Made by a program: the position numbers and the translations under genes. Shown in pieces: positions 389 to 29,262 of a DNA stretch of 32,000 bases. The notes below the pieces were generated by a model. The model saw only the letters and a program-made list of their open reading frames with translations. It searched no databases and was not told the DNA's origin. The stretch covers positions 970,444 through 1,002,443 of the forward strand of contig PQXB01000001.1 of assembly GCA_003194425.1 (NCBI GenBank). Direction: 5' to 3'. The first letter of the stretch is position 1. Each line of letters starts with the position of its first letter. Source of the stretch: Candidatus Methanophagaceae archaeon. Its GTDB lineage: Archaea; Halobacteriota; Syntropharchaeia; Alkanophagales; Methanospirareceae.

Positions 389-1549
389 ATGATGATAAAT
401 TATTTTAAGCCAATGACGAAAAAAATACTCGAAATAAAAGCCTGGAAAGAGCTTTTAGACCTTAATATGCAGGTTTACCTCTTAACAATTCTATTCTGCA
501 TAATTATTACAAAATCTTATAATTATGGCGTAGCAGCAGAAATAACAATACTAATAAGCCTTTTATCATTATATTTGGTCTACACATTCCTCGTTAATGA
601 TTACTGCGACATGCCCTTTGACATAAAAGCAGGGAAAAAAAGGGCGATTCACGAAATGCCAAAAATCGTACCTCTTGGAATGCTCATTTTTTTCGTCTTC
701 TTGAGCGTTATTTTGACCCTGCTTCTGATTTTTTGGAACTCTGAACCTCTCTCAGAAGGTCTCTCAGAAGGTCTCTCAGAAGGTCTCTCAGAAGGTCTCT
801 CAGAAGGTCTCTCAGAAGGTCTCTCAAAATATGGAATCTTCGTCCTCCTTTACGGTACCGCTTACTTCCTCGCTACAGTCTACTCCGCGTTTCCTGTAAG
901 GCTGAAGAGCAGGGGCTCGCTTGGCATAATCGACGATGTCTTGATAGAAAAGACGCTCCCTGTCCTACTAATCTTTTCGTTCTTCGAGTATTACAATCTC
1001 GAAACGCTCCTTTTAGTCGTTCTTTTCTCGCTGCTGCAGCTGAAGATAATTGTAGAACATCAGATCTTGGACTACGAGGCGGACTTAAAGACTGAAGTTC
1101 ATACCTTCGTCGTTAAAGTGGGCGTCAAAAAGGCATCGTCTCTTTTAAATGCAGTCCGTGTCTTCGTGCTACTTTTTTTCATCCTCTTTGCAATAACGCT
1201 CCTGCTAAAAATCCCTTTTTCTGTGATAATCTTAGCCCCCCTTTTCATAGGCTATTTCGTAATGAAAAAACTTGTCGCAGAGGGGAAAGTCGAGAAGAAG
1301 GCGGCGCGTCAGGATTTAAATGTTCCGAAGGAATGGATTGACCGTGTGCCGCTCTATGATGGCTACATCGTCTCGAGTATGAATATTGTCTCGCTGTTTC
1401 TGGCTCTTTTCCTCGCGTTTAAGTCTTATCCTTTTACGGCTTACGGCTCTGCACTGCCCGCCTTTTTAATCGCCCTCGTCTTAATATCGCAGTACTACCT
1501 TATCAGAAATATTTACATACCCTTAACAAAAACCGTTATTTCCTGTTAG
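389..1549 (+). CDS. UbiA-superfamily prenyltransferase-like polytopic membrane protein
   Basis: 386-aa multi-pass hydrophobic ORF. It has a first Asp-rich motif N-D-Y-C-D-M-P-F-D (NDxxDxxxD) and a second motif D-Y-E-A-D (DxxxD followed by T..G), as in UbiA prenyltransferases. It carries an in-frame LSEG x6 tandem-repeat insert. Confidence 0.6.
   Translation: MMINYFKPMTKKILEIKAWKELLDLNMQVYLLTILFCIIITKSYNYGVAAEITILISLLSLYLVYTFLVNDYCDMPFDIKAGKKRAIHEMPKIVPLGMLIFFVFLSVILTLLLIFWNSEPLSEGLSEGLSEGLSEGLSEGLSEGLSKYGIFVLLYGTAYFLATVYSAFPVRLKSRGSLGIIDDVLIEKTLPVLLIFSFFEYYNLETLLLVVLFSLLQLKIIVEHQILDYEADLKTEVHTFVVKVGVKKASSLLNAVRVFVLLFFILFAITLLLKIPFSVIILAPLFIGYFVMKKLVAEGKVEKKAARQDLNVPKEWIDRVPLYDGYIVSSMNIVSLFLALFLAFKSYPFTAYGSALPAFLIALVLISQYYLIRNIYIPLTKTVISC
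749..826. repeat. Perfect 12-bp tandem repeat ctctcagaaggt, 6 copies plus 6 bp, in frame (LSEG)n
   Basis: Counted directly: units at 749-760, 761-772, 773-784, 785-796, 797-808 and 809-820, plus partial 821-826. No mismatches. Confidence 0.95.
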
Positions 1550-3709
1550 ATAATTTTGTAAAAATATCTGAACTTTCTCCTCGTCAGTCCTCAAACTCGG
1601 AAACCAAAACAACGTTCTCTCTTTGTAGTTACAGCCAACTGTTGCAACCTCAGGATTGTCATTTAATTGCCCCAGTACCTTGTAGCCCTCTTTTTCGTAA
1701 TCAAAAGAGGGAAGATATAGAATCTCATCGCCCCTTATTTCCCTGCTTTCTATCCCTTTCAATAATGCATCTCCTTTGGCAAAATGCCAGGAGGATTTGT
1801 CTCTCTCCTGCACCTCTACATTGGTGGTGACATTTAGAAGTCTCTTTAAGTAACTTGCATCTCTATTTCCATATTCATCAAACAAACCTGTCCTACCAAC
1901 AACAAATAAACCCCCTCCTCTCGCACGGTAATCGAGAAGGGCATTTAAAACTTTTTCATCCATTCTTCCGAGATTTACCAACGCTACCACCTTATAACTT
2001 TTTAATTTTAATATCTCAGGATTCTTTACTATTTCATCCGTCGCAACCACATCAAAATCCTCTCCTGCTGAGATAAGTAAAGCACCGAGAGCAAGCGGTT
2101 CGTAGCCTTTGTAACCAGAAAATACATCTAACTCTTCCGTGCCTCTCCTATAATCGAAAGCACCAGCCATAGGTTCTTCTATTATCGCAATCTCGCTTTT
2201 CTCCAACTTTTCCTCCGGCGTCGTATGAAAAGTTTTTGCAAAAGTTGCTATTTCCTTATCTGTAAATTCATCTATAAATTCGTCATCATCACTGCCAAGT
2301 GCTTCATTACCGGAATACCTGTTCTTTCCTTCCCAGATAACTAACCCGCTACTTGTTCTTCTTGCAAACTCCGCACATTTTTTTATCTCCTCTAAATCCG
2401 TGCAGCCCCAATCTTCCCAGGTGATAAAAGCAGGTTTTCCGTGATTTTGGAAGTATTTTATGAAACTGTGGCATATCAGGCGATATAAAGGATTTTCCCA
2501 AAATCCGTTCGAGACCCCGGGGTTAAAGAGAACTAAATCAATATATGAAGAGAATGCATATTCGTAATAATCTGTCTCCATTGTAAATCCCGAAGCGAAA
2601 GTTGTTAAGGGAAGAGAAGAAGTGCAGAACAAGACATGATTTGGGTCAAGGGTTTTATAGAGTTCTGCAAAGTGGTCTCTTGAACGCTTCTTCTCTTCTA
2701 ATCTAAAGAATTGCCAGTCGTAGAACTGCCTTCTTTCGTCTCCACCGCTGTTCACATAATCTACCATTTCATTGAAATCATCAATATCTGGTAAAGGTTG
2801 CGGTATCTCAGCATTCTCAAAAGTCAGACTTTCATTATTCCACCCCTGCCTAAGTTCGGCGGAGTTATTAGAATATTTGTCCTTAAGGTATTCTCTAAAC
2901 CTCTGCTCTGCGAATTCTGAGTAATCGTACCACCCCAACGAGCCGTATCTGAGAACAGGACCGCCAGGATAATTATTCTCTTCTGTATATCCAAACCCTA
3001 AATTCCAGCCAAGCAACGCGGGATGATTCTTGTATCTTTTGACCATTGCTGTAATGACTTGGTCTGTGTATTTCTCATGAGCGGGCGAATTAAAGCAGGG
3101 CATAAAGACTATTTTTCCTGTATTATTTTTTTGAAGATTTGTTTTGTAGTTCTTGAGCCACCACAAAGGCGGTGTGTGATAAACAAAGCAAGGAACTAAA
3201 TAAACACCTCTACTTTCTGCATAATCAAAGAGCTCATCCAAGAGCGTCCAGTCTATTAGTTCTGCAGCATCTTCTGGCGGCTGCATTGGTTTTATTGCAT
3301 CAATTAGCTCTTCATACTCTCCCGCATCATATAACTCCCAAATATTAGGCGGCGCTAACTCCAGCGATGTCTTATCAATAAATAACCACCGTAAATCAAG
3401 AATTACAAAAGTAAAGTTGTGCTTAGCTGCTTTGTCTATGTATTTTTTCACAGGCTCGACGCTTTCTTGACTCCAAGGCAATAGTTGAGAGGTAGTGTAG
3501 AATCCGGTTATCTCTGTCTCTTTATCCCCTACAAAAAGCTCAGGCGTTCCGTTTACAATCTTTACATAACTCTTTTCAGAATTTGCCACTGAAAAAGCTT
3601 TTTCAACTTTTACCCCAGGTGGCGTGGAATCGTAGTACACAACGCCAATTACGGCAATTCCACTTGTAATTCCGATTATCAGTAAAGCTAATATAACTTT
3701 CACTTTCAT
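1523..3709 (-). CDS. Membrane-anchored glycoside-hydrolase-like protein (GH42 / beta-galactosidase-like TIM barrel with C-terminal trimerisation/GATase1-like domain)
   Basis: 728 aa with an N-terminal TM anchor (MKVKVILALLIIGITSGIAVIGVV). The segment MPCFNSPAHEKYTDQVITAMVKRYKNHPALLGWNLGFGYTEENNY parallels the GH42 'C.nsP.y....la.ry..hPal.gW.v.NE' region. The C-terminal VVALVNLGRMD...GGGLFVVG resembles the GH42 C-terminal domain. Its start codon abuts the stop of the upstream GT-C gene (3709/3711). Confidence 0.5.
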   Translation of the reverse strand: MKVKVILALLIIGITSGIAVIGVVYYDSTPPGVKVEKAFSVANSEKSYVKIVNGTPELFVGDKETEITGFYTTSQLLPWSQESVEPVKKYIDKAAKHNFTFVILDLRWLFIDKTSLELAPPNIWELYDAGEYEELIDAIKPMQPPEDAAELIDWTLLDELFDYAESRGVYLVPCFVYHTPPLWWLKNYKTNLQKNNTGKIVFMPCFNSPAHEKYTDQVITAMVKRYKNHPALLGWNLGFGYTEENNYPGGPVLRYGSLGWYDYSEFAEQRFREYLKDKYSNNSAELRQGWNNESLTFENAEIPQPLPDIDDFNEMVDYVNSGGDERRQFYDWQFFRLEEKKRSRDHFAELYKTLDPNHVLFCTSSLPLTTFASGFTMETDYYEYAFSSYIDLVLFNPGVSNGFWENPLYRLICHSFIKYFQNHGKPAFITWEDWGCTDLEEIKKCAEFARRTSSGLVIWEGKNRYSGNEALGSDDDEFIDEFTDKEIATFAKTFHTTPEEKLEKSEIAIIEEPMAGAFDYRRGTEELDVFSGYKGYEPLALGALLISAGEDFDVVATDEIVKNPEILKLKSYKVVALVNLGRMDEKVLNALLDYRARGGGLFVVGRTGLFDEYGNRDASYLKRLLNVTTNVEVQERDKSSWHFAKGDALLKGIESREIRGDEILYLPSFDYEKEGYKVLGQLNDNPEVATVGCNYKERTLFWFPSLRTDEEKVQIFLQNYLTGNNGFC

Positions 3710-3710
3710 T

Positions 3711-5828
3711 TTATCCTTTTTTCAAAATGATACACTCAGTCTGAAATGAATCTACTTTTCTCCATGCCTCTTCTCTTTCTCCTCCTTCTTCTCCTCTGTT
3801 TCCTTCTCTTTCTCCTCTGTTTCCTTCTCTTTCTCCTCTGTTTCCTTCTCTTTCTCCTCTGCTTCCTTCTCCTACTCTTTCTCCTCCTTCTCTTTCTCCT
3901 CCTTTTTCGTATTCGGCATAAAGGTCAACCGTTATTGAAATCTTCCCTGCGTGTTCCCTAACAGGAAGTATTTTAAATTTGAGCATACGAGTTGAATCGC
4001 TATTGAGGGTTAGACTACGCCACGGCTCATCCACAAATATTGTATATTGATCAGAATACACTACAACAGTAAAATTTGTGCGAGAACCCCCCGTGTTCTT
4101 CACCCGAACTAACGCGGTAGATACTGCCCCAACTTTCATCACGCTTGGCACGCTCCTCTCGAAAATCTCTTGAGATATTTTTCCGTCTTTACCATCGTCT
4201 GATGACAATAATTCTGGAGGTTGCATAGTTCTCCTTTTAAAAACAAGACATTTGTAGGGGTAGGTTTGGGAGTGAAAAACGAGTGTATAATCGTCAAATA
4301 TCGGCTTTGCAGTCTTTCCTTCGAGATAGAAAGAATACAGTTCTTCCACTATTAAATAATGTGGTTTTAAAATATTAATTTTTTCTATATCTACTGTTGC
4401 AAGTTCCCCTGAATACTCACTCGCAGGCGTCATAATGAGAAATGAAGTTGCATTAAGGTCGCTAAGGTGTATGCCGTAATCTATAATATTAAATTGAGTA
4501 ATCCGTCCTATTATAATATGCCCTTCATAGCCGCTCTTACGGACATCGGTTTTTATATAATTTAAGGCACTTTCAGTCCACGAATAATCGCCTTTATCCC
4601 AGTAAGGCGACGAAACCGCGGTAACGAAGGAAGAAAACAGCATTATTGTAGTGAGCAGAATTACGAAAAAACTGAAGATATTTTTGTAGTTTTTTCCGCC
4701 TCTCGTTCTCAGTCTCGTTCTCAGTCTCGTTCTCAATTGCTCAAAAGATTTTACAGCAAGATGAGAAAGCATTACAAAGTAAAACAGAACTGTGTAGAGC
4801 AGATAATATTTACTTACTGAACATCCGAGAAATATGAACATAAAAAAACCCAAAATAAAAATCGTAAGAAAACTACCCTCTTTTTCTCGTTTCGTGAAGT
4901 CAAGAAAGAAATAAAGAAGAGTTATAATAAAGAGTAAAAGCGCTGAGAGGAGGAAGAGGGATCTCCAGAAAGGATTTAAACTCTGGTTGCCCCAGGCTAA
5001 TATCTCTGGTATTTTTATCCCTGCTTTTTCAATTAATTCATTTAAAGGTATTTCGTGAACGCGAGTGGCTGACGGTAGTCTTCCTCCTGCTTGTGCTCCC
5101 TTCTCAAATCGTTCCACAGCGTGGTAGTAAATCGGACCTAATCCTACGCCTGTAATCTGAAAACATATCAGCAAAGGGGCGAAGAACAAGAGAGCGAAGA
5201 GAAAAGTTATAATTAGCCGTTTATCCAGCAGCGCTTTAAAACTAAACCGTTTTGTCCAAAAAACATATGCAAGTGCAGCAGGCGCCAAAATAAAGGAAAT
5301 GTATTTCGCATCTATTGCCAGACCAAGCATTATTCCAGCAAGGCAAGCAGATTTTATCTTTTCTTCTGACTGACTCCGCCAGAAGAAGTAAACGAACGCG
5401 GTAATAAAAAATAATGTAAGTGCTTCAAACATTATTAAGCGACTGAATAAGCAGTGGTAGGACGAGAAACAAAGAAAAGAGGCAGCTAACAACCCTGTTT
5501 TTTTATCGTACACCTCTCTTCCAAAAAGATACAAGAAGGGTACAGTTAAACTTCCAAAAAACACGGAAATCATCCTGATAGTCTCTAAATTGCCATCAAA
5601 GAGCAAAGAAACCACTGCTTCAATATATGAAAATAATGGATTTACATATTTAAATACTTCTGCAACAGGTGTAAAATTGTTCGCTAAAACTGTACTTCCC
5701 AGAAAATGATATCCATACTCGTCAGGATACATACAAGCAGTAGGAACGCCCGCTGCTCGTATTAAGAATGCCACAGAAAACAAACTAAGAATTATTAAAA
5801 TATCTTTTCCCCTTCTCTCCGCTATCAT
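3711..5828 (-). CDS. GT-C fold glycosyltransferase (ArnT / PMT_2-like, polyprenyl-phosphate-sugar dependent) with extracytoplasmic Ig/CARDB-like C-terminal domain and repeat tail
   Basis: 705 aa with about 10 or more TM helices. The first-loop acidic motif YPDEYGY matches the DE motif of GT-C enzymes. The soluble C-terminal region (VGAVSTALVRVKNTGGSRTNFTVVVYSD) looks like a CARDB/Ig fold. The extreme C-terminus is a GEREGNR repeat. Confidence 0.6.
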   Translation of the reverse strand: MIAERRGKDILIILSLFSVAFLIRAAGVPTACMYPDEYGYHFLGSTVLANNFTPVAEVFKYVNPLFSYIEAVVSLLFDGNLETIRMISVFFGSLTVPFLYLFGREVYDKKTGLLAASFLCFSSYHCLFSRLIMFEALTLFFITAFVYFFWRSQSEEKIKSACLAGIMLGLAIDAKYISFILAPAALAYVFWTKRFSFKALLDKRLIITFLFALLFFAPLLICFQITGVGLGPIYYHAVERFEKGAQAGGRLPSATRVHEIPLNELIEKAGIKIPEILAWGNQSLNPFWRSLFLLSALLLFIITLLYFFLDFTKREKEGSFLTIFILGFFMFIFLGCSVSKYYLLYTVLFYFVMLSHLAVKSFEQLRTRLRTRLRTRGGKNYKNIFSFFVILLTTIMLFSSFVTAVSSPYWDKGDYSWTESALNYIKTDVRKSGYEGHIIIGRITQFNIIDYGIHLSDLNATSFLIMTPASEYSGELATVDIEKINILKPHYLIVEELYSFYLEGKTAKPIFDDYTLVFHSQTYPYKCLVFKRRTMQPPELLSSDDGKDGKISQEIFERSVPSVMKVGAVSTALVRVKNTGGSRTNFTVVVYSDQYTIFVDEPWRSLTLNSDSTRMLKFKILPVREHAGKISITVDLYAEYEKGGEREGGERVGEGSRGEREGNRGEREGNRGEREGNRGEEGGEREEAWRKVDSFQTECIILKKG
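3791..3872. repeat. 21-bp tandem repeat ctcctctgtttccttctcttt, 3 perfect copies plus 1 diverged partial; encodes (GEREGNR)n on the minus strand
   Basis: Units at 3791-3811, 3812-3832 and 3833-3853 are identical. 3854-3872 is a variant (ctcctctgcttccttctcc). Confidence 0.9.
4701..4735. repeat. 12-bp tandem repeat tctcgttctcag x2.9; encodes (LRTR)3 on the minus strand
   Basis: Units at 4701-4712 and 4713-4724, plus 4725-4735 (11 of 12 bp). Lies inside the GT-C CDS between its TM and soluble parts. Confidence 0.9.
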
Positions 5829-6634
5829 TCCATTTTTTTAACCCTTAAATACCAGCCTACACCCACAAATCTAAGAAAACCGTTTTTATTAGATATTTTA
5901 GATATTCTTTCGCTTACTGGCTGCCATATTTTAAACAACCTCATTAGAATTGGAGTGGGCAGGAAGAGAAGAGGACCCCAAAGTTCAAAAGTGGTCTTGA
6001 CCTCTATTACCCGTAAGCCACACCGTTCAATAATTTTAAGCAGTGAGAAGTAGTTAAAGAATGTGTGGTGAGGCATATTAGCACCAAGCAGCGTAAGAAT
6101 TTTCCGCCCGAAAATCTGTGTCCAACTCATCGGGTTTAAATAATTCTCAACATTAAAATATATTATTCCATCCTGCTTCGTTATTCTGGCTAACTCTTTC
6201 AACGCTTTTTCTACACCTTGCTGACCTCCTGGCAAGTGAAATATCGTGCCAACGCAAAACGAAATATCAAAACTCTCTTCTTTGAACGGTAAATTCATTA
6301 TGTCCGCTAAGGTTAAATCTACCCTTCTACCGTTTAGTGCAGTTTTAGCGCTTTCTAAAACGGCTCTCGATAAATCAACGCCGATGACTTCTGCACCTAA
6401 CTCTGAAAAAAGCGACGAAAACCTCGCAAGTGGTCCAACCCCGGCATCAATAATTCTTTTACCCTCCACTCTTAATTCCTTTGCTATTTCCTCATTAGCA
6501 TTTTTTACGTGCTCTCTTGCCTCGCTTTCCTTTAGTATTTCCTTTAGCCGAGTTCCCTGCAATCTTCCGAAGACAATATCCTCCGGAGGCTCCTCTTTTG
6601 CCCTCTGTTCCCAGATCTCCTTAATTTTCATCAA
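5825..6634 (-). CDS. Class I SAM-dependent methyltransferase
   Basis: 269 aa. Motif I-like IIDAGVGPLARF, then acidic VIGVDLS (motif II) and FDISFCVGTIFHL (motif III region). The stop overlaps the GT-C start by 4 nt (5825-5828), indicating an operon. Confidence 0.7.
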   Translation of the reverse strand: MMKIKEIWEQRAKEEPPEDIVFGRLQGTRLKEILKESEAREHVKNANEEIAKELRVEGKRIIDAGVGPLARFSSLFSELGAEVIGVDLSRAVLESAKTALNGRRVDLTLADIMNLPFKEESFDISFCVGTIFHLPGGQQGVEKALKELARITKQDGIIYFNVENYLNPMSWTQIFGRKILTLLGANMPHHTFFNYFSLLKIIERCGLRVIEVKTTFELWGPLLFLPTPILMRLFKIWQPVSERISKISNKNGFLRFVGVGWYLRVKKME

Positions 6635-9046: not shown

Positions 9047-10264
9047 TTATTTAGAGAGCGCCTCGAGAATGTCGTGCGGGTTTGGGGGGCAGCCTTTTAT
9101 GTGCGTGAGGTTGTTCTTCTTCGCAATCTCTCTGGTGCAGTCGCCGAGGCAAATTACCTTTCCGTGCTGCTCCGGTATTTTCGCGTGCTTTCCCTGAATT
9201 ACATCAAGCCTCTTGAAGAGGGCGTAGTACGAAAATCTCGGTACGAACCGGAGCCAATATTTCGGGCTGCGGACTCCTGTCTTCACAGCCAACGAGAAGG
9301 AATCAATGCACATCGAGCAGGCGTAGGGGTTCCGCCATGAGTAGACATTTAAGATGTTTCCGTATTTTTTATTCGCCTGTTTGAACTTTTTTTTTACCCC
9401 TCCTTCTTCTTTTTCTTCTTTGACTTTAACACCAAATAAATTCAGCTTCGCAGGACCGATTTTCTGTTTCCGTCCCGCTCTAATGTGTTCAACGCTCTCG
9501 GGCTTTACGCCCATAATTTCGCAGCACGCAGTGTCCACTTCTAAAAGATTTGTTCCGAGAACAAGGACGCCAACTCGCTTCTTCTTGCCGTTCAGCGGTC
9601 CTTCGCCCTCCATTCCTTCAACGCCGTCAACAACAACCAAGTCCGGCTTCACAACCTTCGCCAACTCTACTAACGGCTCGTGCAAGCCCAAGTTGTGAAA
9701 ACGCTTCTTGTCGGAGTTCAGGAGAAGCCCCTTTTGGTTCTTCATTGAAAGCGTCACGACGGTCTGCCCGTGCGTTTTCATCTTCGGCAGATTTACATAC
9801 AAGTCCGCGTCAAGAACGATTTTCGGGATTTTCAGGACGCCGTATTTCCACCTTAACTCTGTGCGTTCTGCTTTCTTGAGGCTGTTGTTTAGGCTGTTGT
9901 TTAGGCTGTTGTTTAGGCTGTTGAGGTTCACGAGGTTCACCCCCTTTCTCGCTGCCAGCTCGCTGTACCCCGAGACCTCAAAGACCCTGCTCTCGTCTGC
10001 CCCTAACCCCGAGCCTTCTGCGATTGTGATGTTTCGGGTCTCAAAGCCGTTCTCTTCGAGGACGCTGATCGTTGCTTCGACGACCGCGGGGTGAGTAATT
10101 ATTGCAGAGCTTGGTTTTGCGGGAATGACAATATTTGGCTTTAGGACTGCGGTTCTTTTAGTTCTGTTCTGCAAGTCCAACCCTAACTCTTTAACTGCAC
10201 TGCCGATCAAACGCTCTAACGATTTTACACTGTATTTCTTGGCTTCAACAACTTTCACACTCAT
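9047..10264 (-). CDS. DUF362-domain protein (putative Fe-S / Cys-rich C-terminus)
   Basis: KPNIVIPAKPSSAIITHPAVVEATISVLEENGF is typical of DUF362. I place the start at the ATG at 10264-10262 (MSVKVVEAKKY..), which overlaps the upstream gene's stop as ATGA (10261-10264). The 44-codon extension in the ORF track lies inside the upstream CDS. Confidence 0.6.
   Translation of the reverse strand: MSVKVVEAKKYSVKSLERLIGSAVKELGLDLQNRTKRTAVLKPNIVIPAKPSSAIITHPAVVEATISVLEENGFETRNITIAEGSGLGADESRVFEVSGYSELAARKGVNLVNLNSLNNSLNNSLNNSLKKAERTELRWKYGVLKIPKIVLDADLYVNLPKMKTHGQTVVTLSMKNQKGLLLNSDKKRFHNLGLHEPLVELAKVVKPDLVVVDGVEGMEGEGPLNGKKKRVGVLVLGTNLLEVDTACCEIMGVKPESVEHIRAGRKQKIGPAKLNLFGVKVKEEKEEGGVKKKFKQANKKYGNILNVYSWRNPYACSMCIDSFSLAVKTGVRSPKYWLRFVPRFSYYALFKRLDVIQGKHAKIPEQHGKVICLGDCTREIAKKNNLTHIKGCPPNPHDILEALSK
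9879..9940. repeat. Two abutting in-frame tandem repeats: 12-bp aggctgttgttt x3.75 (NSLN)n and 9-bp gaggttcac x2 (VNL)2
   Basis: 12-bp units at 9879-9890, 9891-9902 and 9903-9914, plus partial 9915-9923. 9-bp units at 9923-9931 and 9932-9940. All perfect. Confidence 0.95.
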
Positions 10265-11214
10265 TTCTTCCCAACCTTCTCCGCAATCAAATAAGGGTGG
10301 TGAGCGACAAAAGTCTTGAACGCCGACGGTGCTTGCTTCTCGATTAAATTGTACCAAATTCTGAATAAGAGCAGTGCAAACCTGTCCTTCGGGCACGCTT
10401 CCCCCGCCGCTTTAACCGCGTTTAGGTCGCTCAACAGCTCACCGAGTGGCTTGAGTTTGACCGCGGGTCTAAGTTCGTGCCACTCCTCTCTCCCCTTCTC
10501 TTTCCCTCTCCCCTTCTCTTTCCCTCTCCCCTTCTCTTGCGTCTTTTGACTCTGCTCTCGCTTTAGCATTTCGGCAGCCTTTATGTTTATGTCGGGCCAG
10601 GGCGGCATGTCCGTCGCACCGGTTTCAAGAACGACCGCGTCCAAGCCCTCAACGATTTTTTTCAGCCCCGAGATTTTCATCTGGCTCAGGTTGCCGTGGT
10701 CCCAGGGCTCCCGCCGCAAGTAGTGGTAGGCGCGGTGGAAGGGCAAGCCGAGGTTGAAGACATTTTGGATTTCCAAAAAAATGTATCTTCTCGTTACGCG
10801 CAGCATTTCTTTTACTACCGCCTCAGGGCGGGGAAAGTGCTCGTAGACGCAGAAGTTCCAGACCAAGTCGAAGGAGTCGTCTCTAAACGCGGAGTCCTGC
10901 CAGTGCGACCTGACAAATTCGGGTTTTGGTTGGACAAACCCAAACGCAGCCCAAATTTTTCCCGCTGTTTTCAAGAACTCCGCAGAGGGGTGAGCCACCG
11001 TAACCCCGCACCCCTTCGCCGCAAAGACCGCACTTTTCAGCCCCGGCACGCCCATAATTCCGTCTGCCGGCATCTCCAAGACCTCTGAAATCTCGTACCG
11101 CTCTACTAACGCAGAAGCGAACCTGTCAAACGCAAACCGCTCGTACGCGGTGCCGTAGCCCTCGTCAAACGCGAAGAGATATTTTTGCAACCCTTTGCCT
11201 CTCTTCTTTTTCAT
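10261..11214 (-). CDS. Class I methyltransferase-like protein (degenerate SAM motif)
   Basis: 317 aa. VLEMPADGIMGVPG...GCGVTVAH and FDLVWNFCVYEHF resemble motifs I-III of Rossmann-fold methyltransferases. The C-terminal half carries a KGRGKE repeat insert. Assignment is tentative. Confidence 0.45.
   Translation of the reverse strand: MKKKRGKGLQKYLFAFDEGYGTAYERFAFDRFASALVERYEISEVLEMPADGIMGVPGLKSAVFAAKGCGVTVAHPSAEFLKTAGKIWAAFGFVQPKPEFVRSHWQDSAFRDDSFDLVWNFCVYEHFPRPEAVVKEMLRVTRRYIFLEIQNVFNLGLPFHRAYHYLRREPWDHGNLSQMKISGLKKIVEGLDAVVLETGATDMPPWPDINIKAAEMLKREQSQKTQEKGRGKEKGRGKEKGREEWHELRPAVKLKPLGELLSDLNAVKAAGEACPKDRFALLLFRIWYNLIEKQAPSAFKTFVAHHPYLIAEKVGKK
10488..10538. repeat. 18-bp tandem repeat ctctccccttctctttcc x2.8; encodes (KGRGKE)n on the minus strand
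   Basis: Units at 10488-10505 and 10506-10523 are identical. 10524-10538 is a 15-bp partial copy. Confidence 0.95.
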
Positions 11215-11252: not shown

Positions 11253-11770
11253 TCAAAAAAAATAAAAAACCAGTGAGACCGCAGGCGAGAACCTCTGCAT
11301 CTTTTTGCCTGTTGTTCCTCCGAGATGGTTGTTGTTCGCTTCGTACAGTTCGATGTTCGCTCGCATGTAGGGCGAAGGAAGATTCGTCACCGCTACTTTC
11401 AAGACGCCTGTCTTCGTCAGGTTCACCTTGAACCAGTCGTGGTCGCCAGCGCCGAAGATGTAGGGTTTTAGTGCCGTGCCAGTGCCGTGCCGAGAGCGAT
11501 TTCCTTCGCGCCTGCGAAATCGCCGTTCGGCTCGTATTCGTCGGGAACTTCGTCCTGCGTTAGTGTTAGCGTGTACGTCGTTGTGTAACTTCCGCCTGCG
11601 TAGTCGCGGATTCGGAAGTAGTAGTCGCCGGGCGTGACAACATCGTAAGAGACCGCTTTGTCTGCGCCCGTGTCGCCCGTCACACCCGTGAGGTAGTTGT
11701 TGTTCGCGCCGTAAATCTCGACCTCCGCGCGCATTGACGCGGGGATATTTGTTACTACATAAATTGTTGT
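11253..11770 (-). pseudogene. Remnant of a secreted protein with pre-peptidase C-terminal (PPC)-type domains; 5'-truncated, frameshifted and 3'-degenerate
   Basis: The 88-aa ORF (11468-11734) reads ..MRAEVEIYGANNNYLTG...GDYYFRIRDYAGGSYTTTYTLTLTQ..EYEPNGDFAGAKEIALG. My translation of the next frame downstream gives KPYIFGAGDHDWFKVNLTKTGVLKVAVTNLPSPYMRANIELYEANNNHLGG, a second PPC-like repeat. In-frame sequence upstream of the Met (TTIYVVTNIPAS) stops at a TAA, so the first domain lacks its start. Confidence 0.6.
11470..11491. repeat. 11-bp tandem duplication agtgccgtgcc x2 (frameshifting)
   Basis: Copies at 11470-11480 and 11481-11491 are identical. Deleting one copy joins ..AKEIALGTAL to KPYIFGAGDHDWFKV.. 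in a single frame. Confidence 0.9.
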
Positions 11771-11796
11771 GTCTCTTTAAATACTTACCTCGTTTA

Positions 11797-11834
11797 ATAT
11801 TTACCTCTTCTATATTTACCTCTTCTTTACCTCT
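11797..11834. repeat. Intergenic 15-bp tandem repeat atatttacctcttct x2.5
   Basis: Units at 11797-11811 and 11812-11826 are identical. 11827-11834 is partial. Lies between the DUF373 stop (11841) and the PPC remnant. Confidence 0.9.
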
Positions 11835-15316: not shown

Positions 15317-15375
15317 GTAGGAAGGAAAGACAAGGAAGGAAAGTAGGAAGAACAGACAAGAAAGGATACGGATAA

Positions 15376-15403
15376 AAAGTAAAAGAAAGAAAGTAAAAGA
15401 AAG
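15376..15403. repeat. Intergenic all-purine 14-bp tandem repeat aaagtaaaagaaag x2, within a purine-rich spacer (15317-15417)
   Basis: Units at 15376-15389 and 15390-15403 are identical. The upstream spacer also carries imperfect aggaaggaaag repeats. Confidence 0.85.
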
Positions 15404-15417
15404 GGAAGATTAGAAAA

Positions 15418-15942: not shown

Positions 15943-15969
15943 TTGGTGGTTAGAGAATTCTGCAGAAAA

Positions 15970-17741: not shown

Positions 17742-19349
17742 TTATCCCGCGTTCCTTCTTTTCTTTTCTCGCCGTTCCTTGAGTTTCTGTTTGTAGATTT
17801 TCATAAATTTTCTGAAGGCGTCACGGTCTTCTTCTTCCTTTAACATCGATTCGTAGTCTTGAATCGCTGTTTTGACGACTTCTTCGCTTGAAAGTGTTAA
17901 GATTGTAAGATAGAACGCTGCGCTCTCTGCCGAATTTTTAAAACCTTTCTCCACAGATTTTCTTCCTATTTCTCCAAACGACCGTACCACTTCCTTGGTC
18001 GCGCGTTCAAGACCGTTTCTTTCAGACGTACTTCCAACAAAATCAAGATTAAACATTGCATCTAATATTATGTCCTCAAGACCTTTTTCCGCAGCAGTAC
18101 TTCCTAATTTTCCAAGATACTTTGCTGCAAGAAATGTTGCTTCTTTAACCTCCTCAATATGACCCTTCGCTGCGGCAATTCTTCCAATCTCTGCAAGAGA
18201 GAATCCTGCCCTCTGTGCCGCTCTTTTAAGACCTTTTTCTACAGCAGTTATTCCAATAAGTCCTAAATAGATTGTAGTATTTATAACGGCAATACTGAAA
18301 TCTTTTTCCACAGCTTTTTTTCCAATTTTTTCAAAGGAGTACACTGCTTTTATCAACCCACTCTCAAGACCTTTTTCTGCAGCTGCACCCACTACAGCTC
18401 CAAGAAACCATACTACATTCTCTGTCGCTTTTTTAAGTTCTCTTTTTACAGTGGTCTCTCCAAACTTCTCTAAATTTTCAATAACTTCCCAGACTGACTC
18501 CTCGTCCTCCCTGCTCGCAGCCAGCCTGCCAACTCGTTCTAAATGCCTGCAAAACCGCTTTGAAATCTCCTCCTCTCCCTTGCCCGCACTTTCCGAACCA
18601 AGAATTTCAGCCACCCGCTCAGTAACCTCCTTCAACCCAACTCTCGTCGTCGCGAAGTCGTATTTCATAATTGCACTGCGAACAACATCCAAAACCGGCA
18701 GAATCGGGTCTTCTTCCTCGTTGTCTTCCGCCTTGAGAATTTTCTCTCTCGTAATTCCCACCGCCAACCGTTTAACAATTTCCTCTGCTTTCAAAAGTTC
18801 GAAAATATTCCACAGGTACGGAAACAGGGCAACGAAAGAGAACGCCCCGAGCCAAAACGCGAGCGAAACCCAAAACTCAAGCGAGCCAGAGACCGCCTCT
18901 CCTCCCGCTCCTCCCGCTCCTCCCGCTCCTCCCGCTCCTCCCGCTCCTCCCGCTCCTCCCGCAGCCTCCACCAGTTTCAGCACGCCGAGACCGTAAAACA
19001 TCGAGAGCCCGTAGAAAAACAAAAGCAGCCACAGGTCAGGATTCCGCTTAAAAATATCAACAACTCGCGGCGAGTACGCGGAGGCGGTGAGTTGAACCGC
19101 GATTAGGGTCAGCGAGACAACAATTGCAACGACCGACGCCTGACTCTGAACCAACGCGCTGAGCAAGTACCTCGCACTCTCGGCGTCGGTGTGAAAAAGG
19201 TTGAGTTCGCGAAAAAGAAAGCAGCAAGCCAAAACAACCACCGCAAGACACGAGAAATACTCAACGAGCCGTGCAGGCCACGGGTGCAGGAATTTAAAAC
19301 TCTCCCACCCAACCAACCCCTCACCTAACCCCTCACCCAACCCCCTCAC
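17742..19349 (-). CDS. DUF2254-like membrane protein with C-terminal array of about 23-aa helical repeats
   Basis: ARYLLSALVQSQASVVAIVVSLTLIAVQLTASAYSPRVVDIFKRNP matches my memory of the DUF2254 N-terminal membrane region. The C-terminal half has about 7 degenerate repeats of the type ..A....L..IG..A.EKGL... The start is uncertain: the GTG at 19349 lies inside a tandem repeat, and TTG (LVGWESF) is an alternative. Confidence 0.5.
   Translation of the reverse strand: MRGLGEGLGEGLVGWESFKFLHPWPARLVEYFSCLAVVVLACCFLFRELNLFHTDAESARYLLSALVQSQASVVAIVVSLTLIAVQLTASAYSPRVVDIFKRNPDLWLLLFFYGLSMFYGLGVLKLVEAAGGAGGAGGAGGAGGAGGAGGEAVSGSLEFWVSLAFWLGAFSFVALFPYLWNIFELLKAEEIVKRLAVGITREKILKAEDNEEEDPILPVLDVVRSAIMKYDFATTRVGLKEVTERVAEILGSESAGKGEEEISKRFCRHLERVGRLAASREDEESVWEVIENLEKFGETTVKRELKKATENVVWFLGAVVGAAAEKGLESGLIKAVYSFEKIGKKAVEKDFSIAVINTTIYLGLIGITAVEKGLKRAAQRAGFSLAEIGRIAAAKGHIEEVKEATFLAAKYLGKLGSTAAEKGLEDIILDAMFNLDFVGSTSERNGLERATKEVVRSFGEIGRKSVEKGFKNSAESAAFYLTILTLSSEEVVKTAIQDYESMLKEEEDRDAFRKFMKIYKQKLKERREKKRRNAG
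18901..18961. repeat. 9-bp tandem repeat cctcccgct x6.8; encodes (AGG)7 between TM helices
   Basis: Six identical units span 18901-18954, plus a 7-bp partial copy. Confidence 0.95.
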
Positions 19350-19362
19350 CCAACCCCTCCCG
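19315..19362. repeat. 12-bp tandem repeat aacccctcacc(c/t), about 4 copies, one of them 13 bp; spans the annotated start of the DUF2254-like gene (GLGE)n
   Basis: Units at 19315-19326, 19327-19338, 19339-19351 (extra c) and 19352-19362 (diverged). Confidence 0.85.
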
Positions 19363-21720: not shown

Positions 21721-22929
21721 ATGAAAAAATTTTCCGTCTCCCTCGTCCTTTTTGTCTTCCTCGCCGTCGCCCCTCTTGCATGTGCCGGAGCAGAAAGCCA
21801 GCAGGCAGAAAGCCAGCAGGCAGAAAGCCAGCAGGAGCAGGTGTCTCTTTATTATTTCTACGCAGAGGACTGCTCGCACTGTAAAAAAGTCGCACCTCTG
21901 CTGGAAGAACTTGAGGCGAAGTTCCCGGAGCTTGAAGTCCGCAGGTTTGACCTCTCCTACAACGAGAACAACGCAACGAAGACAACGAAGAACACAAAGA
22001 GCAGCAGCGAACTCTTTAACGCTTTTATTCAGACTTACAACCCGCCAGCAGTCGAAATCCCCGCGGTCTTCGTCGGCAACAAGTCCTTGATTGGACGCGG
22101 GCTGACAAGAGAGAGGCTCGAGGCGGAGGTAGAGTTCTGCTTGCGGAACGGGTGCCCTGACCCGCTCGCACTTGTGAAAGGAGAGGCAGAGGGAGTCACA
22201 GAGGGAGTTGGAGGCAGAGGTGGAGGCGGAGGCGGAGAAGAGGGAGAAGAGGACAAGTCGCCGCTACTTTTAATGCTCGTTGGAACGGCGTTAGTCGAGG
22301 GGCTCAACCCTTGCGGTTTTGCGGTTCTGATTTTTTTGCTCGCCTCTCTTCTCTCCTTGAGGACGAGGAGAAGCGTTCTCGGCGTGGGCTTGGCGTTCGT
22401 CGCGAGCGTCGTCGCCACGCACTTCTTCGTCGGGCTCGGTCTTGTGGGCTGCTACCTCTTCTCGGCGGGCACAACGACCCTCGTTAGACGGTTAGTAATT
22501 TTCGTGGCTCTCTCGGCGGGAGTTCTGAACCTGCACGACTTTTGGCGAGACAAGGCGACTTTAGCCGTTCCGAGCGTTCTGAAACCAGGAATTGCAAGAC
22601 TCGCAGGCTACGCGTCTGTGCCCTGTGCCGTTCTCTTGGGCTTCTTTGCCACGATGGCGGGACTTCCGTGCACGGGCTGCATTTACCTTACCGTGCTGGG
22701 GCTGCTCGCCGCCGAGCCGGCAGCGTCAGCCTTAAAGACCGTTCTTTACCTCCTGCTCTACAACTTCTTCTACGCTCTGCCCCTCCTCCTAATTCTCGCC
22801 CTAATTTACAGGGGGACTTCGCCAGAGGAGGTGGAGGCGTGGAGGAAGGGGAAGCGGCGGTTTATGAAACTCGCCGGTGGTCTCGTGCTGCTTGGATTTG
22901 GCACTGCAATGCTTCTTGGTCTTGTTTAG
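21721..22929 (+). CDS. Thioredoxin-fold domain fused to a DsbD/CcdA-family transmembrane thiol-disulfide electron transporter
   Basis: Signal peptide MKKFSVSLVLFVFLAVAPLACAGA. Trx-like VSLYYFYAEDCSHCKKVAPLLEELE (CxxC). The membrane domain has the conserved Pro-Cys motifs LNPCGFAVLIFLL and GLPCTGCIYL, as in CcdA/DsbD. It contains an AESQQ x3 repeat and a Gly/Glu-rich linker. Confidence 0.75.
   Translation: MKKFSVSLVLFVFLAVAPLACAGAESQQAESQQAESQQEQVSLYYFYAEDCSHCKKVAPLLEELEAKFPELEVRRFDLSYNENNATKTTKNTKSSSELFNAFIQTYNPPAVEIPAVFVGNKSLIGRGLTRERLEAEVEFCLRNGCPDPLALVKGEAEGVTEGVGGRGGGGGGEEGEEDKSPLLLMLVGTALVEGLNPCGFAVLIFLLASLLSLRTRRSVLGVGLAFVASVVATHFFVGLGLVGCYLFSAGTTTLVRRLVIFVALSAGVLNLHDFWRDKATLAVPSVLKPGIARLAGYASVPCAVLLGFFATMAGLPCTGCIYLTVLGLLAAEPAASALKTVLYLLLYNFFYALPLLLILALIYRGTSPEEVEAWRKGKRRFMKLAGGLVLLGFGTAMLLGLV
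21790..21834. repeat. 15-bp tandem repeat gcagaaagccagcag x3, in frame (AESQQ)3 directly after the signal peptide
   Basis: Units at 21790-21804, 21805-21819 and 21820-21834 are identical. Confidence 0.95.
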
Positions 22930-22930: not shown

Positions 22931-23881
22931 TTAGCCTCTCCTCCTGCTGTTCCTCCTGCTCTTGCTCTTTCCCTTCCTCAGCCAAAAAACAACGGCAAGC
23001 AGACCTGCAACTGCAAGAACCGCTTCAAACCCTGGCTGCTCCGTGCCTGAAGTCGCGTCAGAGTCAGAGACGACCTCAAAACCGCTCTCCTGCCACGCGT
23101 TCATTCCGCCAAACACGTTGTAAATCTGGTCAAAGTCCTGCTCCACAAGAATTTCACAGGCTCTGCTGCTGTTCCGACCGTCTTCGCTGAAGACCACGAT
23201 TTTCTTGCTCTTCTCCAACTCTGCTGCTCTGTTGCTCAACTCTGCGAGAGGAATTGAAGTGGCGCCCTTTAAATGCCCCGCCTTGAATTCTGCGTTGGGT
23301 CTCACGTCGAGTAGAACGACCTCTCCGCCGTCTCTTTGCTGCTGTTGCATTCGCTGTGCCTCGTTGACGAAGATGATTCTTACAGGGTTTCTTCGCCCGG
23401 GGCTTGAGGTAATTTCGATGCTGTGCGTTGCGTTCACGACCTCGCCCTCCGCCTCACAAACCACTGACGCGTTTATGAAGTAAGTCCCCTCGTAGATTCC
23501 TGCACACTTGGAGCAGGAGGGAAGAGTTCTTGAGAAGGTCACTGTGTTCTCCCCCGCGGTCAGATTCGTCTTGTTTGAGTAGGAGATGTAGTTCACGCCC
23601 CGCTTACTCCTCACGCCCGCGACTTCGATGAGGGCGTCGCTTACGTTCTCGGAAGAGTAAACGGTCAAGACGACTTTTACCGTCTCCCGCGCGCAGTACA
23701 CTTCCTTGTCGGTGGTGAAGGCGACGATTTTTACCGCGTTGTCTGTTCCCGCTACTGTTCCCGCTACCGCCGCCGCTGCTGGCGTGGGAAAAGCCGAAAG
23801 CAGCACTGTCGCCACCGCTAACACACCCACACCGATTTTCTTGCTGTTTTCCTTTCCTTGCTTCTCTTTATTTTTTTTCAT
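22931..23881 (-). CDS. Secreted rhodanese-homology-domain protein with N-terminal Ig-like domain and PGF-CTERM archaeosortase sorting signal
   Basis: Signal/TM segment KKIGVGVLAVATVLLSAFPTPAAA. Rhodanese fold VVLLDVRPNAEFKAGHLKGATSIPL...KIVVFSEDGRNSSRACEIL...GGMNAWQESGF. The C-terminus TEQPGFEAVLAVAGLLAVVFWLRKGKSKSRR is PGF plus a TM helix plus a basic tail. The active-site loop has Ser where the catalytic Cys is expected. Confidence 0.7.
   Translation of the reverse strand: MKKNKEKQGKENSKKIGVGVLAVATVLLSAFPTPAAAAVAGTVAGTDNAVKIVAFTTDKEVYCARETVKVVLTVYSSENVSDALIEVAGVRSKRGVNYISYSNKTNLTAGENTVTFSRTLPSCSKCAGIYEGTYFINASVVCEAEGEVVNATHSIEITSSPGRRNPVRIIFVNEAQRMQQQQRDGGEVVLLDVRPNAEFKAGHLKGATSIPLAELSNRAAELEKSKKIVVFSEDGRNSSRACEILVEQDFDQIYNVFGGMNAWQESGFEVVSDSDATSGTEQPGFEAVLAVAGLLAVVFWLRKGKSKSRRNSRRRG
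23743..23766. repeat. 12-bp tandem repeat ctgttcccgcta x2; encodes (VAGT)2
   Basis: Units at 23743-23754 and 23755-23766 are identical. Confidence 0.9.
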
Positions 23882-23905: not shown

Positions 23906-23937
23906 AATTTTAAATTAGTACGCTTTTAAATTAGTAC
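23906..23937. repeat. Intergenic 16-bp tandem repeat ttttaaattagtacgc x2
   Basis: Units at 23906-23921 and 23922-23937 are identical. Lies upstream of the rhodanese-like gene start (23881). Confidence 0.95.
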
Positions 23938-24072
23938 GCCAAAAAAGACAGGAGCAGAATTGATATTTTGAGATTAGTGTCAGCCGAGATTTCCGCGGCG
24001 GTTGCGAAAAATGCAGCGGCAAACGATGAAAAGGACGAAGAATTAGAGGAAGAGGAAGAATAAAAAAAGCGA

Positions 24073-29185: not shown

Positions 29186-29190
29186 TTTTC

Positions 29191-29262
29191 TGCTTCTGTT
29201 TCTACTTTTGCTTCTGCTTTTGCTTCTACTTTTGCTTCTGCTTTTGCTTCTGCTTTTGCTTT
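29191..29262. repeat. Hexamer-based tandem repeat (tgcttc/tgcttt/tacttt), with 24-bp higher-order unit tacttttgcttctgcttttgcttc x2
   Basis: 12 consecutive hexamers span 29191-29262. 29203-29226 and 29227-29250 are identical. It encodes the (QK)n tail and the TAG stop (29226-29228) of the coiled-coil gene, and fills the whole 40-bp gap up to the RM start codon. Confidence 0.9.

Follow-up and report, generated by a model that had tools for sequence, protein, structure and literature searches.

We found that a 32,000-nucleotide (nt) stretch of DNA from Candidatus Methanophagaceae archaeon, hereafter called the window (contig PQXB01000001.1, positions 970,444 to 1,002,443), carries a dense set of perfect head-to-tail tandem repeats (TRs) of the kind previously described from the Borg elements of Methanoperedens. 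We directly observed their high density, their adherence to a reading-frame rule, their copy-number polymorphism between strains, their restriction to one clade of ANME-1 archaea, their chromosomal context, and a bias in their strand composition. These observations support the presence, which is new, of a Borg-type repeat syndrome in a cellular ANME-1 chromosome. We consider it probable that the pattern results from a clade-specific excess of tandem duplication and slippage, filtered by selection, on an otherwise ordinary ANME-1 chromosome.

TRs were detected with Tandem Repeats Finder and with our own scan for maximal perfect periodic runs, which together underlie all TR coordinates given here; the census counted perfect runs of at least 18 nt and of at least 30 nt in the 32-kb window and the strain contigs overlapping it. 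In all, 29 perfect TR loci in the window reach 18 nt or more; their units are 9 to 24 nt long and are present in 2.0 to 7.1 copies, and 16 of the loci reach at least 30 nt. A prior inspection of the letters alone (the sequence-only reading) had listed about 20 mostly perfect loci, essentially all of which were recovered by both detection methods to within 1 to 3 nt. The chance baseline, obtained from 200 block-wise first-order Markov shuffles of the window, had means of 0.37 loci of at least 18 nt and 0 loci of at least 30 nt. As real comparators, we used purF-centered loci from one genome per species and from metagenomes, among the matches listed, which amount to about 2.1 Mb overall. The resulting densities, in loci per 10 kb, are as follows.

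Window, 32 kb: 9.06 loci of at least 18 nt; 5.0 loci of at least 30 nt.
Other ANME-1 loci, 253 kb: 0.99 of at least 18 nt; 0.20 of at least 30 nt.
All other purF-centered loci, 1.84 Mb: 0.71 of at least 18 nt; 0.11 of at least 30 nt.

The excess in the window is thus about 10-fold over other ANME-1 at the lower cutoff and 25- to 70-fold at the higher one. The sequence-only reading would have failed had TR density been ordinary for archaea; instead it is 10 to 70 times that of other ANME-1 and of archaeal and bacterial purF loci, and chance as the source of the TRs is ruled out by both the shuffles and the comparators. Under the definition used for Borgs (perfect, at least 50 nt, at least 3 units; PMC9879509), 4 arrays account for 0.86% of the bases of the window, with corresponding values of 0.25% in the strain relatives, 0% in other ANME-1, and 0.010% in the 1.84 Mb of other loci; the published figures are an average of 0.62% of bases for Borgs and no more than 0.01% for Methanoperedens (PMC9879509). 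A comparison of all units revealed that each unit sequence is unique to its own locus, which indicates that the repeats arise locally rather than through the spread of a mobile sequence and rules out a dispersed repeat family or mobile element. A search of the window for tRNAs and Rfam RNA families found none.

Strain relatives were collected by exact look-up of the Rpl10e and NifU proteins, which yielded contigs L081 to L090 and L172 to L181 from ENA, NCBI, JGI, and Logan. They share the gene order of the window at 93.6 to 99.4% nucleotide identity over 7 to 13 kb, and strain alleles were obtained by cutting each locus out of each contig between 30-nt flank anchors. Exact look-up of the GH42 protein recovered only a 3-kb Logan contig (L091), both ends of which fall within arrays. 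The same kind of look-up with the UbiA, coiled-coil, methylase, and dehydrogenase proteins returned no matches, and the genome and metagenome purF scans gave no same-clade contig among the matches listed. Gene identities are from Pfam annotation, with start codons corrected by use of the relatives. The loci, with strain alleles where several contigs cover them, are as follows.

748..826, forward strand: loop of a UbiA-family prenyltransferase; perfect 12-nt unit in 6.6 copies, (LSEG)n; contig L091 ends inside it.
3768..3904, reverse strand: PMT_2 glycosyltransferase near its C terminus; degenerate homopurine array encoding GEREGNR repeats, with a perfect 21-nt unit in 3.5 copies at 3789-3861 and a 15-nt unit in 2 copies at 3875-3904; L091 also ends within it.
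4701..4735, reverse strand: PMT_2 glycosyltransferase; 12-nt unit in 2.9 copies, (LRTR)n.
5889..5906, reverse strand: methyltransferase; 9-nt unit in 2 copies (ISK), a minimal two-copy repeat.
9404..9421, reverse strand: DUF362 protein; 9-nt unit in 2 copies (KEE).
9879..9940, reverse strand: inside the DUF362 domain; 12-nt unit in 3.75 copies (NSLN, 9879-9923) abutting a 9-nt unit in 2 copies (VNL, 9923-9940); lengths of 38, 59, 62, and 68 nt among strains, all in steps of multiples of three.
10488..10538, reverse strand: methyltransferase; 18-nt homopurine unit in 2.8 copies (KGRGKE); 33 or 51 nt among strains, and NCBI contig L082 has an N-gap exactly there.
11470..11491, reverse strand: PPC/Big_13 surface-protein gene; 11-nt unit in 2 copies, frame-breaking, with an 88-residue stub left in the window.
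11781..11826, no strand: intergenic; 15-nt repeat, perfect in 2 copies at 11797-11826; lengths of 31, 46, 50, 51, and 66 nt among strains, in steps that are not multiples of three.
12985..13020, reverse strand: C terminus of PurF; 18-nt unit in 2 copies (DCESKV), two copies in 9 of the 9 strain contigs covering the site.
13555..13650, reverse strand: interdomain linker of PurF; composite of an 18-nt unit in 2.6 copies (13555-13601) and 12-nt units (13597-13649), Gly/Ser/Cys; seven length alleles among strains, 42, 54, 66, 78, 96, and 102 nt among them, all in steps of multiples of six.
13812..13857, reverse strand: loop of PurF; degenerate 15-nt array (80% matches) forming a G/K-rich insert; alleles of 46 to 70 nt in steps of multiples of three.
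14096..14155, reverse strand: glutaminase domain of PurF; 15-nt unit in 3.9 copies (AGQQQ; 14098-14155); alleles of 30, 45, 57, and 60 nt.
14654..14708, reverse strand: purF 5' leader; 11-nt unit in 5 copies; alleles of 44, 55, 67, 77, and 88 nt, in steps that are not multiples of three; contig L087 ends in the array.
15315..15403, forward strand: spacer between the signal peptidase gene and rpl10e; purine-rich 26-nt and 14-nt arrays, with a 14-nt unit in 2 copies at 15376-15403; lengths upstream of rpl10e of 89, 103, 111, 115, and 139 nt among strains.
18899..18962, reverse strand: loop of a DUF2254 membrane protein; 9-nt unit in 7.1 copies (AGG); alleles of 28, 46, 55, and 64 nt.
19313..19362, reverse strand: straddling the DUF2254 start codon; G-rich imperfect 12-nt array with one 13-nt unit (GLGE); alleles of 13, 37, and 50 nt, and an N-gap there in L082.
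21790..21835, forward strand: thioredoxin-domain protein (about 400 residues) near its N terminus (relative position 0.08); 15-nt unit in 3.1 copies (AESQQ), two or three copies depending on the strain.
21960..22252, forward strand: further short in-frame repeats of the thioredoxin-domain gene; 9-nt unit in 2 copies (21974-21991) and a G/E-rich repeat (22205-22252); strain differences of 15 nt and 12 nt.
23743..23767, reverse strand: rhodanese with a PGF-CTERM motif, near its N terminus; 12-nt unit in 2.1 copies (VAGT); alleles differ by 9 or 12 nt among strains.
23906..23939, no strand: intergenic, where the strain gene order breaks into a variable defense island; 16-nt unit in 2 copies (23908-23939).
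29188..29261, reverse strand: stop codon of a coiled-coil gene and the spacer before the Type ISP gene; 12-nt unit in 6.2 copies, 90% matches, with KQ repeats encoded only by 29229-29261.
29535..29553, reverse strand: coiled-coil protein; 9-nt unit in 2.1 copies (NTE).

Placement relative to gene boundaries qualifies the earlier description of three of these arrays. The array at 19315-19362, initially taken for a clean 12-bp array inside a coding sequence, is imperfect, includes one 13-nt unit and straddles the DUF2254 start codon, and the array at 29191-29262, likewise assigned to a coding sequence, crosses the stop codon of the coiled-coil gene. The array at 14654-14708, earlier assigned to noncoding DNA, belongs to the purF 5' leader when purF is started at the ATG at 14643, the start used in relatives. 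On the sense strand this leader array consists of GTTTGGAGGCA and GTTTAAAGGCA units; every GTTTGGAGGCA unit carries GGAGG, and the last GGAGG lies 15 nt upstream of the purF ATG. Within the linker array, the 13555-13601 repeat encodes the Cys/Gly tract GCGCGGGCGCGGGCG (PurF residues about 355 to 370 of the 565-residue open reading frame), and the linker repeat is Cys rich in some strains and Ser rich in others. The PurF of Bacillus subtilis is an iron-sulfur enzyme.

Every one of the 21 perfect TRs lying wholly inside intact genes has a unit divisible by three, as against 2 of the 8 that are intergenic, in a pseudogene, or straddling a gene end (units of 11, 15, 11, 11, 14, 13, 16, and 24 nt; Fisher's exact test, p = 5.9e-5). 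Length changes between strains follow the same division, being multiples of three in genes and steps of 11, 14, 15, or 26 nt in spacers. The rule that the sequence-only reading had proposed, namely units divisible by three in coding sequences and mostly other lengths outside them, accordingly holds in the window and in its relatives, and the lack of such enrichment in genes that would have undone it was seen in neither. Perfect TRs are about three times denser in the noncoding 9% of the window, which, with small numbers, is roughly what a pure frame filter would yield.

The PPC/Big_13 surface-protein gene illustrates what happens when a unit breaks the frame. The 11-nt unit at 11470 is single in contigs L081, L083, and L084, and L081 and L083 have the intact gene, of 1,254 residues. 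L085, with two copies of the unit, has the gene called in two pieces, of 88 and 926 residues, and in the window, L082, L086, L088, and L089 the duplication is accompanied by loss of most of the gene. The suspicion that an 11-bp duplication had broken this gene is thus vindicated by its intact state where the unit is single, and the splitting of the gene indicates that duplications of other than multiples of three do strike genes and persist only where the gene is dispensable. This strain-variable duplication is a direct instance of the earlier idea that repeats are generated everywhere and then filtered by selection. About 3.1 kb of the gene is gone from the window (11215-11840; intact at 2426-6190 of L081), and the intact gene contains internal repeats about 75% identical and about 350 nt apart.

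Nearly every TR locus between 8.6 and 24 kb is present in every strain contig that covers it, with differing unit numbers among contigs of 95 to 99.4% identity, and most of the strain indels of at least 3 nt in multiple alignments sit at TR loci. L081 and L087 are separated by 5 substitutions in 9.3 kb, yet two of their TR arrays differ, which suggests that the rate of change of one array is about equal to that of several kilobases of ordinary DNA. In some strains, individual units have acquired single substitutions. The original characterization of the repeats as young therefore applies to the arrays, whose rapid turnover keeps them perfect, and not to the loci, which are shared across, and predate, the 3 to 5% divergence of the strains. 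The concern that the repeats might vanish in other data is allayed by their presence at the same loci in separate-sample contigs from four sources, a comparison made at the level of assembled contigs.

The inserts are confined to this clade, as had been predicted from the expectation that they would be lineage specific: comparisons of PurF, DUF362, and PMT_2 all find them missing outside it. We aligned PurF from the strain relatives, five other ANME-1, Methanoperedens, Methanococcoides, and Methanospirillum and found that the AGQQQ, Gly/Ser/Cys, and C-terminal DCESKV repeats occur only in the clade, with the other PurF sequences ending differently at the C terminus. The G/K-rich insert lies at a loop that is variable in other ANME-1, a few of which have a nonrepetitive insert there. 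The 120 best database matches to PurF are at most 69% identical, and none of the 12 that we inspected has repeat inserts. Set against the B. subtilis PurF structure (PDB 1AO0), the inserts map to loops and precisely to the boundary of the glutaminase and phosphoribosyltransferase domains, the linker insert being placed between residues 272 and 274 of the B. subtilis protein, and the residues that are conserved among the aligned PurF sequences are retained, including the N-terminal Cys and the C-terminal Cys pair.

For DUF362, the closest match outside the clade is P0164 (94% amino acid identity, alignment A3), which reads 'NLNRLN-KAER' where the window encodes NLN(SLNN)3SLKKAER. DUF362 homologs read 'NLN-KAER' and have no insert, and the KEE duplication has no counterpart in P0164 or in any other DUF362 homolog aligned. 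The contig that encodes P0164, L182, shows 86% nucleotide identity to the window in DUF362 and 67 to 70% further along, contains 1 perfect TR in 6.3 kb, and encodes a PMT_2 ortholog with 'YEKDER' in place of the GEREGNR array and no LRTR repeat. Because L182 is poor in TRs and the strains are rich in them, the onset of the syndrome is bracketed between this outgroup, at 86% nucleotide identity, and the strains at least 95% identical to the window. Ancient inserts common to relatives are ruled out by the PurF and DUF362 alignments together with L182.

On the sense strand, the genic TRs consist of A, G, C, and T in fractions of 0.365, 0.385, 0.162, and 0.088, compared with 0.274, 0.290, 0.197, and 0.238 in all coding sequence of the window. 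The purine richness of the sense strand, earlier judged by eye, can thus be put at 0.75 in the genic TRs versus 0.56 in the host genes, and it is higher in 17 of 21 loci (Wilcoxon test, p = 4e-4). The bias tracks gene orientation, being seen for genes on either strand and also for the oriented spacer arrays (A 0.39, G 0.40, T 0.16; about 5 loci). Some units contain nothing but purines, for example, AAGAGAAGGGGAGAGGGA, and runs of G abound in the DUF2254-start array. The encoded peptides had been described as rich in G, S, E, K, R, Q, N, and A, and these residues indeed make up 84% of the repeat-encoded positions versus 50% in all proteins of the window; hydrophobic residues account for 9% versus 36%, Gly and Gln are enriched 3- to 4-fold, and Pro, the aromatics, Met, and His are absent. 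This composition suggests that the inserts are likely to be disordered.

The TRs of Borgs and mini-Borgs, elements of Methanoperedens, have been described in detail (PMC9879509, Schoelmerich et al. 2023; mini-Borg preprint 10.1101/2023.08.02.551345), and perfect frame-respecting TRs have been used as the signature of these elements and reported to be virtually absent from host chromosomes. The window shares with them perfect head-to-tail units unique to each locus in arrays flanked by partial units, a similar or higher density (0.86% here versus 0.62% in Borgs), units that are only multiples of three in genes and mostly not so in spacers, an increase of purines on the coding strand at the expense of T (in genes confounded with the choice of amino acids), copy numbers that differ between close relatives, arrays that break assemblies, and encoded peptides rich in disorder-prone residues. 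In density, reading-frame rule, between-strain unit variation, and locus-unique units, then, the window displays the Borg-type TR syndrome, and at the descriptive level the match is close. The differences lie in the setting and in the details. Here the TRs belong to the chromosome of a cell, from another order (ANME-1); genes are read from both strands, and guanine plus cytosine (GC) makes up about 50% of the TR-rich part; the bias is toward A plus G, whereas Borgs are enriched in A and depleted in T; the arrays are shorter, mostly of 2 to 7 units of 9 to 21 nt; Cys is enriched along with Gly and Gln, and Pro is missing, whereas Borg repeats lack Cys and have the Pro codon CCA among their commonest; and the affected proteins include core enzymes such as PurF. 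Borgs are linear extrachromosomal elements of Methanoperedens that have terminal inverted repeats and keep all genes of a replichore on one strand; with genes on both strands, an ANME-1 affiliation, and a chromosomal gene order, the window is not a Borg.

Two further systems invite comparison. Bacterial variable-number tandem repeat and contingency loci are few per genome, have frame-shifting units of 1 to 8 nt, and cluster in surface or restriction genes. The arrays described here resemble them in the gain and loss of whole units, in strain polymorphism, and in the occurrence of arrays in 5' leaders and gene starts (the purF leader and the DUF2254 start), but differ in having units of 9 to 26 nt that are in frame, dense, and located in housekeeping genes. 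As all genic units are multiples of three, the loci as a set fall outside the contingency class, and only the purF-leader and DUF2254-start arrays could act as expression switches. In Plasmodium falciparum and Dictyostelium, slippage-derived low-complexity inserts occur in housekeeping proteins and are AT driven, mostly as codon-level runs of Asn or Lys. There too, a genome-wide tendency places hydrophilic disordered inserts, absent from orthologs, in the loops of conserved enzymes, but those eukaryotic tracts are codon-level runs, unlike the perfect 9- to 21-nt units seen here. In a survey of 117,861 genomes, short tandem repeats were densest in P. falciparum and not enriched, on average, in archaea and bacteria (PMC12699852).

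Another archaeal chromosomal contig of 20.7 kb, not related to the window (L130; JGI Ga0123353_10003172), shares 89% PurF identity with Methanimicrococcus sp. OttesenSCG-928-J09. Its perfect TRs number 16 (7.7 per 10 kb), of which 10 are built from 12-nt units, in up to 4.9 copies. Like the window, it has 9-, 12-, and 18-nt units in TRs fully inside open reading frames, except for one 8-nt two-copy run, and 13-nt and 14-nt units in spacers only. Our literature search found no systematic description of the frame rule, the strain dynamics, or the housekeeping inserts for any archaeal chromosome, and no prior report of TRs in ANME-1 chromosomes in the literature searched, subscription-only papers excepted. 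A recent paper on ANME-1 strain diversity filtered out structural variants of 50 bp or less and so would miss the shorter changes seen here.

On the basis of these observations, we propose that in the clade that includes the ANME-1 archaeon ex4572_4, short tandem duplications of 9 to 26 nt would arise, and would gain or lose units, at an unusually high rate in genes and spacers alike. In a rare initial step, a local tract, usually purine rich and T poor on the sense strand, would be duplicated head to tail. Out-of-register realignment during DNA synthesis (slipped-strand mispairing) or unequal recombination would then add or remove units rapidly, and as a consequence the arrays would stay near-perfect and polymorphic between strains. 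Purifying selection would act against frame-breaking and structurally disruptive events, such that only units of multiples of three would remain in needed genes, at sites such as loops, interdomain linkers, termini, and N-terminal regions that tolerate hydrophilic flexible inserts, while spacers would retain any unit length and dispensable genes may break. Candidate triggers include a change in a replication or repair factor, homopurine or G-rich DNA that forms structures, events linked to transcription, and a dedicated enzyme. We infer slippage as the propagating step, as well as a clade-specific cause and any function of the inserts; either slippage or unequal exchange accounts well for the whole units gained and lost afterward. 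Archaeal PolB and PolD, assayed from Pyrococcus, are reported to slip in vitro when the template carries a hairpin (PMC4134008). The distribution of the repeats is in keeping with such a scheme: the small conserved genes rpl10e, signal peptidase, DUF373, and nifU contain 0 perfect TRs each, and the low-GC defense islands that replace the right flank of the window in relatives contain 0 in 7.8 kb (L172) and 2 in 7.2 kb (L173), as would fit a process acting over the residence time of the DNA in the lineage, followed by a selective filter.

The repeats might instead be kept mainly by positive selection, as flexible linkers, tunable 5' leaders, or contingency-type switches, with no increase in mutation rate. 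Their placement at loops, linkers, and termini, their 84% content of disorder-prone residues, the multiplication of the GGAGG motif just upstream of the ATG by the purF-leader array, and the span of the DUF2254 array across a start codon, where its 13-nt unit shifts the frame, would all suit such a role, and the authors of the Borg studies argue for TR function. We nevertheless think this explanation unlikely, as repeats of other than multiples of three and of unrelated sequence occupy several spacers and in one case break a gene, copy number drifts among near-identical strains with no favored value, and unrelated enzymes, membrane proteins, and neighbors of restriction systems are all affected; moreover, selection alone does not account for a 10- to 70-fold excess confined to one clade. 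A dedicated repeat-adding enzyme, the same as or related to the Borg agent (a special family-B polymerase or an integrase/nuclease acting by 'copy and paste', encoded by the clade or by a resident element), would account for the point-for-point descriptive match to Borg TRs and for the abrupt onset between the 86%-identity outgroup and the clade, and first duplications without microhomology suit staggered-cut/fill-in or integrase-like chemistry better than slippage. Such an agent is, however, improbable in our estimation, since Pfam annotation reveals no candidate gene in the window, the units range from 9 to 26 nt rather than having the one fixed length that a single staggered-cut enzyme would give, and nothing ties this ANME-1 clade to Borgs or Borg polymerases.

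Another possibility, that the contig is a large ANME-1 extrachromosomal element with captured core genes, takes its appeal from the precedent of Borgs, which reach about 1.1 Mb and carry translation and metabolic genes, from the similar size of the source contig (1.19 Mb), and from the restriction-modification and toxin-antitoxin genes in the window. The conserved core that hosts many of the TRs (11841..17178; DUF373, purF, signal peptidase, rpl10e, and isocitrate/isopropylmalate dehydrogenase by Pfam annotation) speaks for the chromosome. The order DUF373, purF, signal peptidase, and rpl10e is kept in several independent ANME-1 genomes (a single-cell genome included), L004, L008, and L010 among them, at 60 to 78% amino acid identity, and the identities of PurF (61 to 69%) and Rpl10e (75 to 78%) to ANME-1 genomes are typical of vertical descent. 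Exact protein matches equate the window with PXF51694-PXF51708 (C4B55_04880-04965) of a 'Candidatus Methanophagaceae archaeon' bin whose longest contig has 1,187,124 bp, and the core proteins PXF51702-PXF51704 lie on this 1.19-Mb contig; they also place ANME-1 cluster archaeon ex4572_4, which is from the Guaymas Basin (PMC5569505), in the same clade. Genes occur on both strands, no relative of the window purF was found among the IMG/VR viral contigs, and the ten contigs listed for the exact rpl10e look-up present a single gene neighborhood, with no second context among them. Because gene order is shared with other ANME-1, the source contig is 1.19 Mb long, genes lie on both strands, and IMG/VR yields no match, the window is best supported as a chromosomal segment of an ANME-1 (Methanophagales) archaeon, the first of the two options left by the sequence-only reading; a viral or extrachromosomal origin is disfavored, and we regard the captured-core element as very improbable. 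The arrays do disturb assembly, with L091 ending in them, L082 showing N-gaps at two TR loci, and 6 of 25 contig ends lying within 30 nt of a TR versus about 3 expected, a modest and anecdotal excess. That the arrays are themselves products of assembly or scaffolding has, in our judgment, a negligible probability and is ruled out in practice by the recurrence of the same loci, with coherent whole-unit alleles, in separate-sample contigs from four public sources (ENA, NCBI, JGI, and Logan) with differing assembler naming styles, in which the genic alleles always preserve the frame.

Several points weigh against the preferred explanation, a clade-specific excess of duplication and slippage filtered by selection. 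The two-copy repeats have 0 nt of flanking microhomology in 10 of 14 cases and 1 to 2 nt in the rest, equal to chance, which makes classical slippage a poor model for the first duplication, so that the initial step may use another route. A clade-specific replication or repair cause is speculation. The purine bias of the genic TRs could stem wholly from selection for G, E, K, R, and Q codons, and the oriented spacer sample set beside it is small, at about 5 loci. The AlphaFold model of PurF is poor (mean predicted local distance difference test score of 57), so that the case for disorder draws on composition and alignment only; the model is usable for the N-terminal domain only, where the G/K insert has low confidence (residues 266-276) and AGQQQ is drawn as a helix extension. 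TR density is also uneven, at about 13 per 10 kb across 8 to 24 kb and about 4 to 6 per 10 kb in both flanks, and the data comprise about 32 kb plus the overlapping strain contigs.

The window divides into parts of different composition. From 1 to 9 kb (38 to 45% GC) lie genes for a UbiA prenyltransferase, a GH42-like protein, a PMT_2 glycosyltransferase, a methyltransferase, a radical-SAM/SPASM protein, and a GT4 glycosyltransferase. From 9 to 24 kb (46 to 58% GC), genes for DUF362, a methyltransferase, the PPC/Big_13 stub, DUF373, PurF, signal peptidase, and Rpl10e are followed by those for isocitrate/isopropylmalate dehydrogenase, ParE, DUF2254, Fsr, NifU, a thioredoxin-domain protein, and a rhodanese with a PGF-CTERM motif. 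The GC step between the glycosylation/cell-surface cluster (1-9000) and the core (9000-24000) is abrupt, with TRs on both sides, and in L182, too, a glycosylation cluster stands beside DUF362, where GC falls in a similar way and the order of the genes differs slightly. The sulfur/redox cluster at 19451-23881 (Fsr, NifU, thioredoxin-domain protein, and PGF-CTERM rhodanese) is kept in all strain relatives; its Fsr is an F420-dependent sulfite reductase with FrhB-type domains fused to a sulfite reductase domain. At the junction of rpl10e and the dehydrogenase gene (15943-15990; L081 10526-10571), a 19-nt indel alters the spacing: the two genes abut in the window and are separated by a 46-nt spacer in L081, L087, and L089. 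The real start of the dehydrogenase in the window is probably an internal ATG (MKRGYK...).

An intact ParE-family toxin of 96 residues is encoded at 17209-17691 beside a 62-residue DUF7557 partner. In all strain relatives, the toxin gene carries a 23-nt or 43-nt deletion and is called as stubs of 67 to 68 residues; to judge from these deletions, the toxin appears to be inactivated in the other strains. Beyond the rhodanese gene (23917-32000), the strain gene order dissolves into a variable defense island, which in the window codes for VapBC, an SDH-type protease, a Type ISP restriction enzyme, a coiled-coil protein, and a methylase-Mrr fusion, and which in relatives (e.g., L172 1-7800) is represented by an MmeI-type enzyme, a PIN protein, DUF2283, a PycTM-like protein, and a different Type ISP gene. 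A 46-nt direct repeat, 89% identical between its copies at 24158-24203 and 26430-26475 and spaced 2272 nt apart, has one copy immediately upstream of vapB and its partner within the 3' portion of the Type ISP gene and may be the scar of a cassette insertion or recombination.

As cellular chromosomes can show this syndrome, TRs alone should not be used to label a contig as 'Borg-like'. Assemblies and protein sets of this ANME-1 clade will be fragmented or length variable at TR sites. The varying gene orientation in the window allows the strand bias to be tied to the direction of transcription, whereas replication and transcription are confounded in Borgs, and the TR-rich clade together with its TR-poor sister offers a tractable comparison for finding the cause. 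The earlier, Borg-only picture left open whether the element or the cell makes the repeats. We tentatively raise the idea, which we hold to be possible although doubtful, that the hallmark TRs of Borgs are produced by the machinery of the cell, or by some transferable factor, able to become active in an archaeal chromosome. If so, it would have been switched on in one ANME-1 clade, between the TR-poor sister at 86% identity and the strains at 95% identity or more, and this bracketing, along with other TR-rich lineages such as that of the Methanimicrococcus-like contig, would allow the underlying gene or genes to be identified from presence and absence and would also explain how the repeats of Borgs arise.

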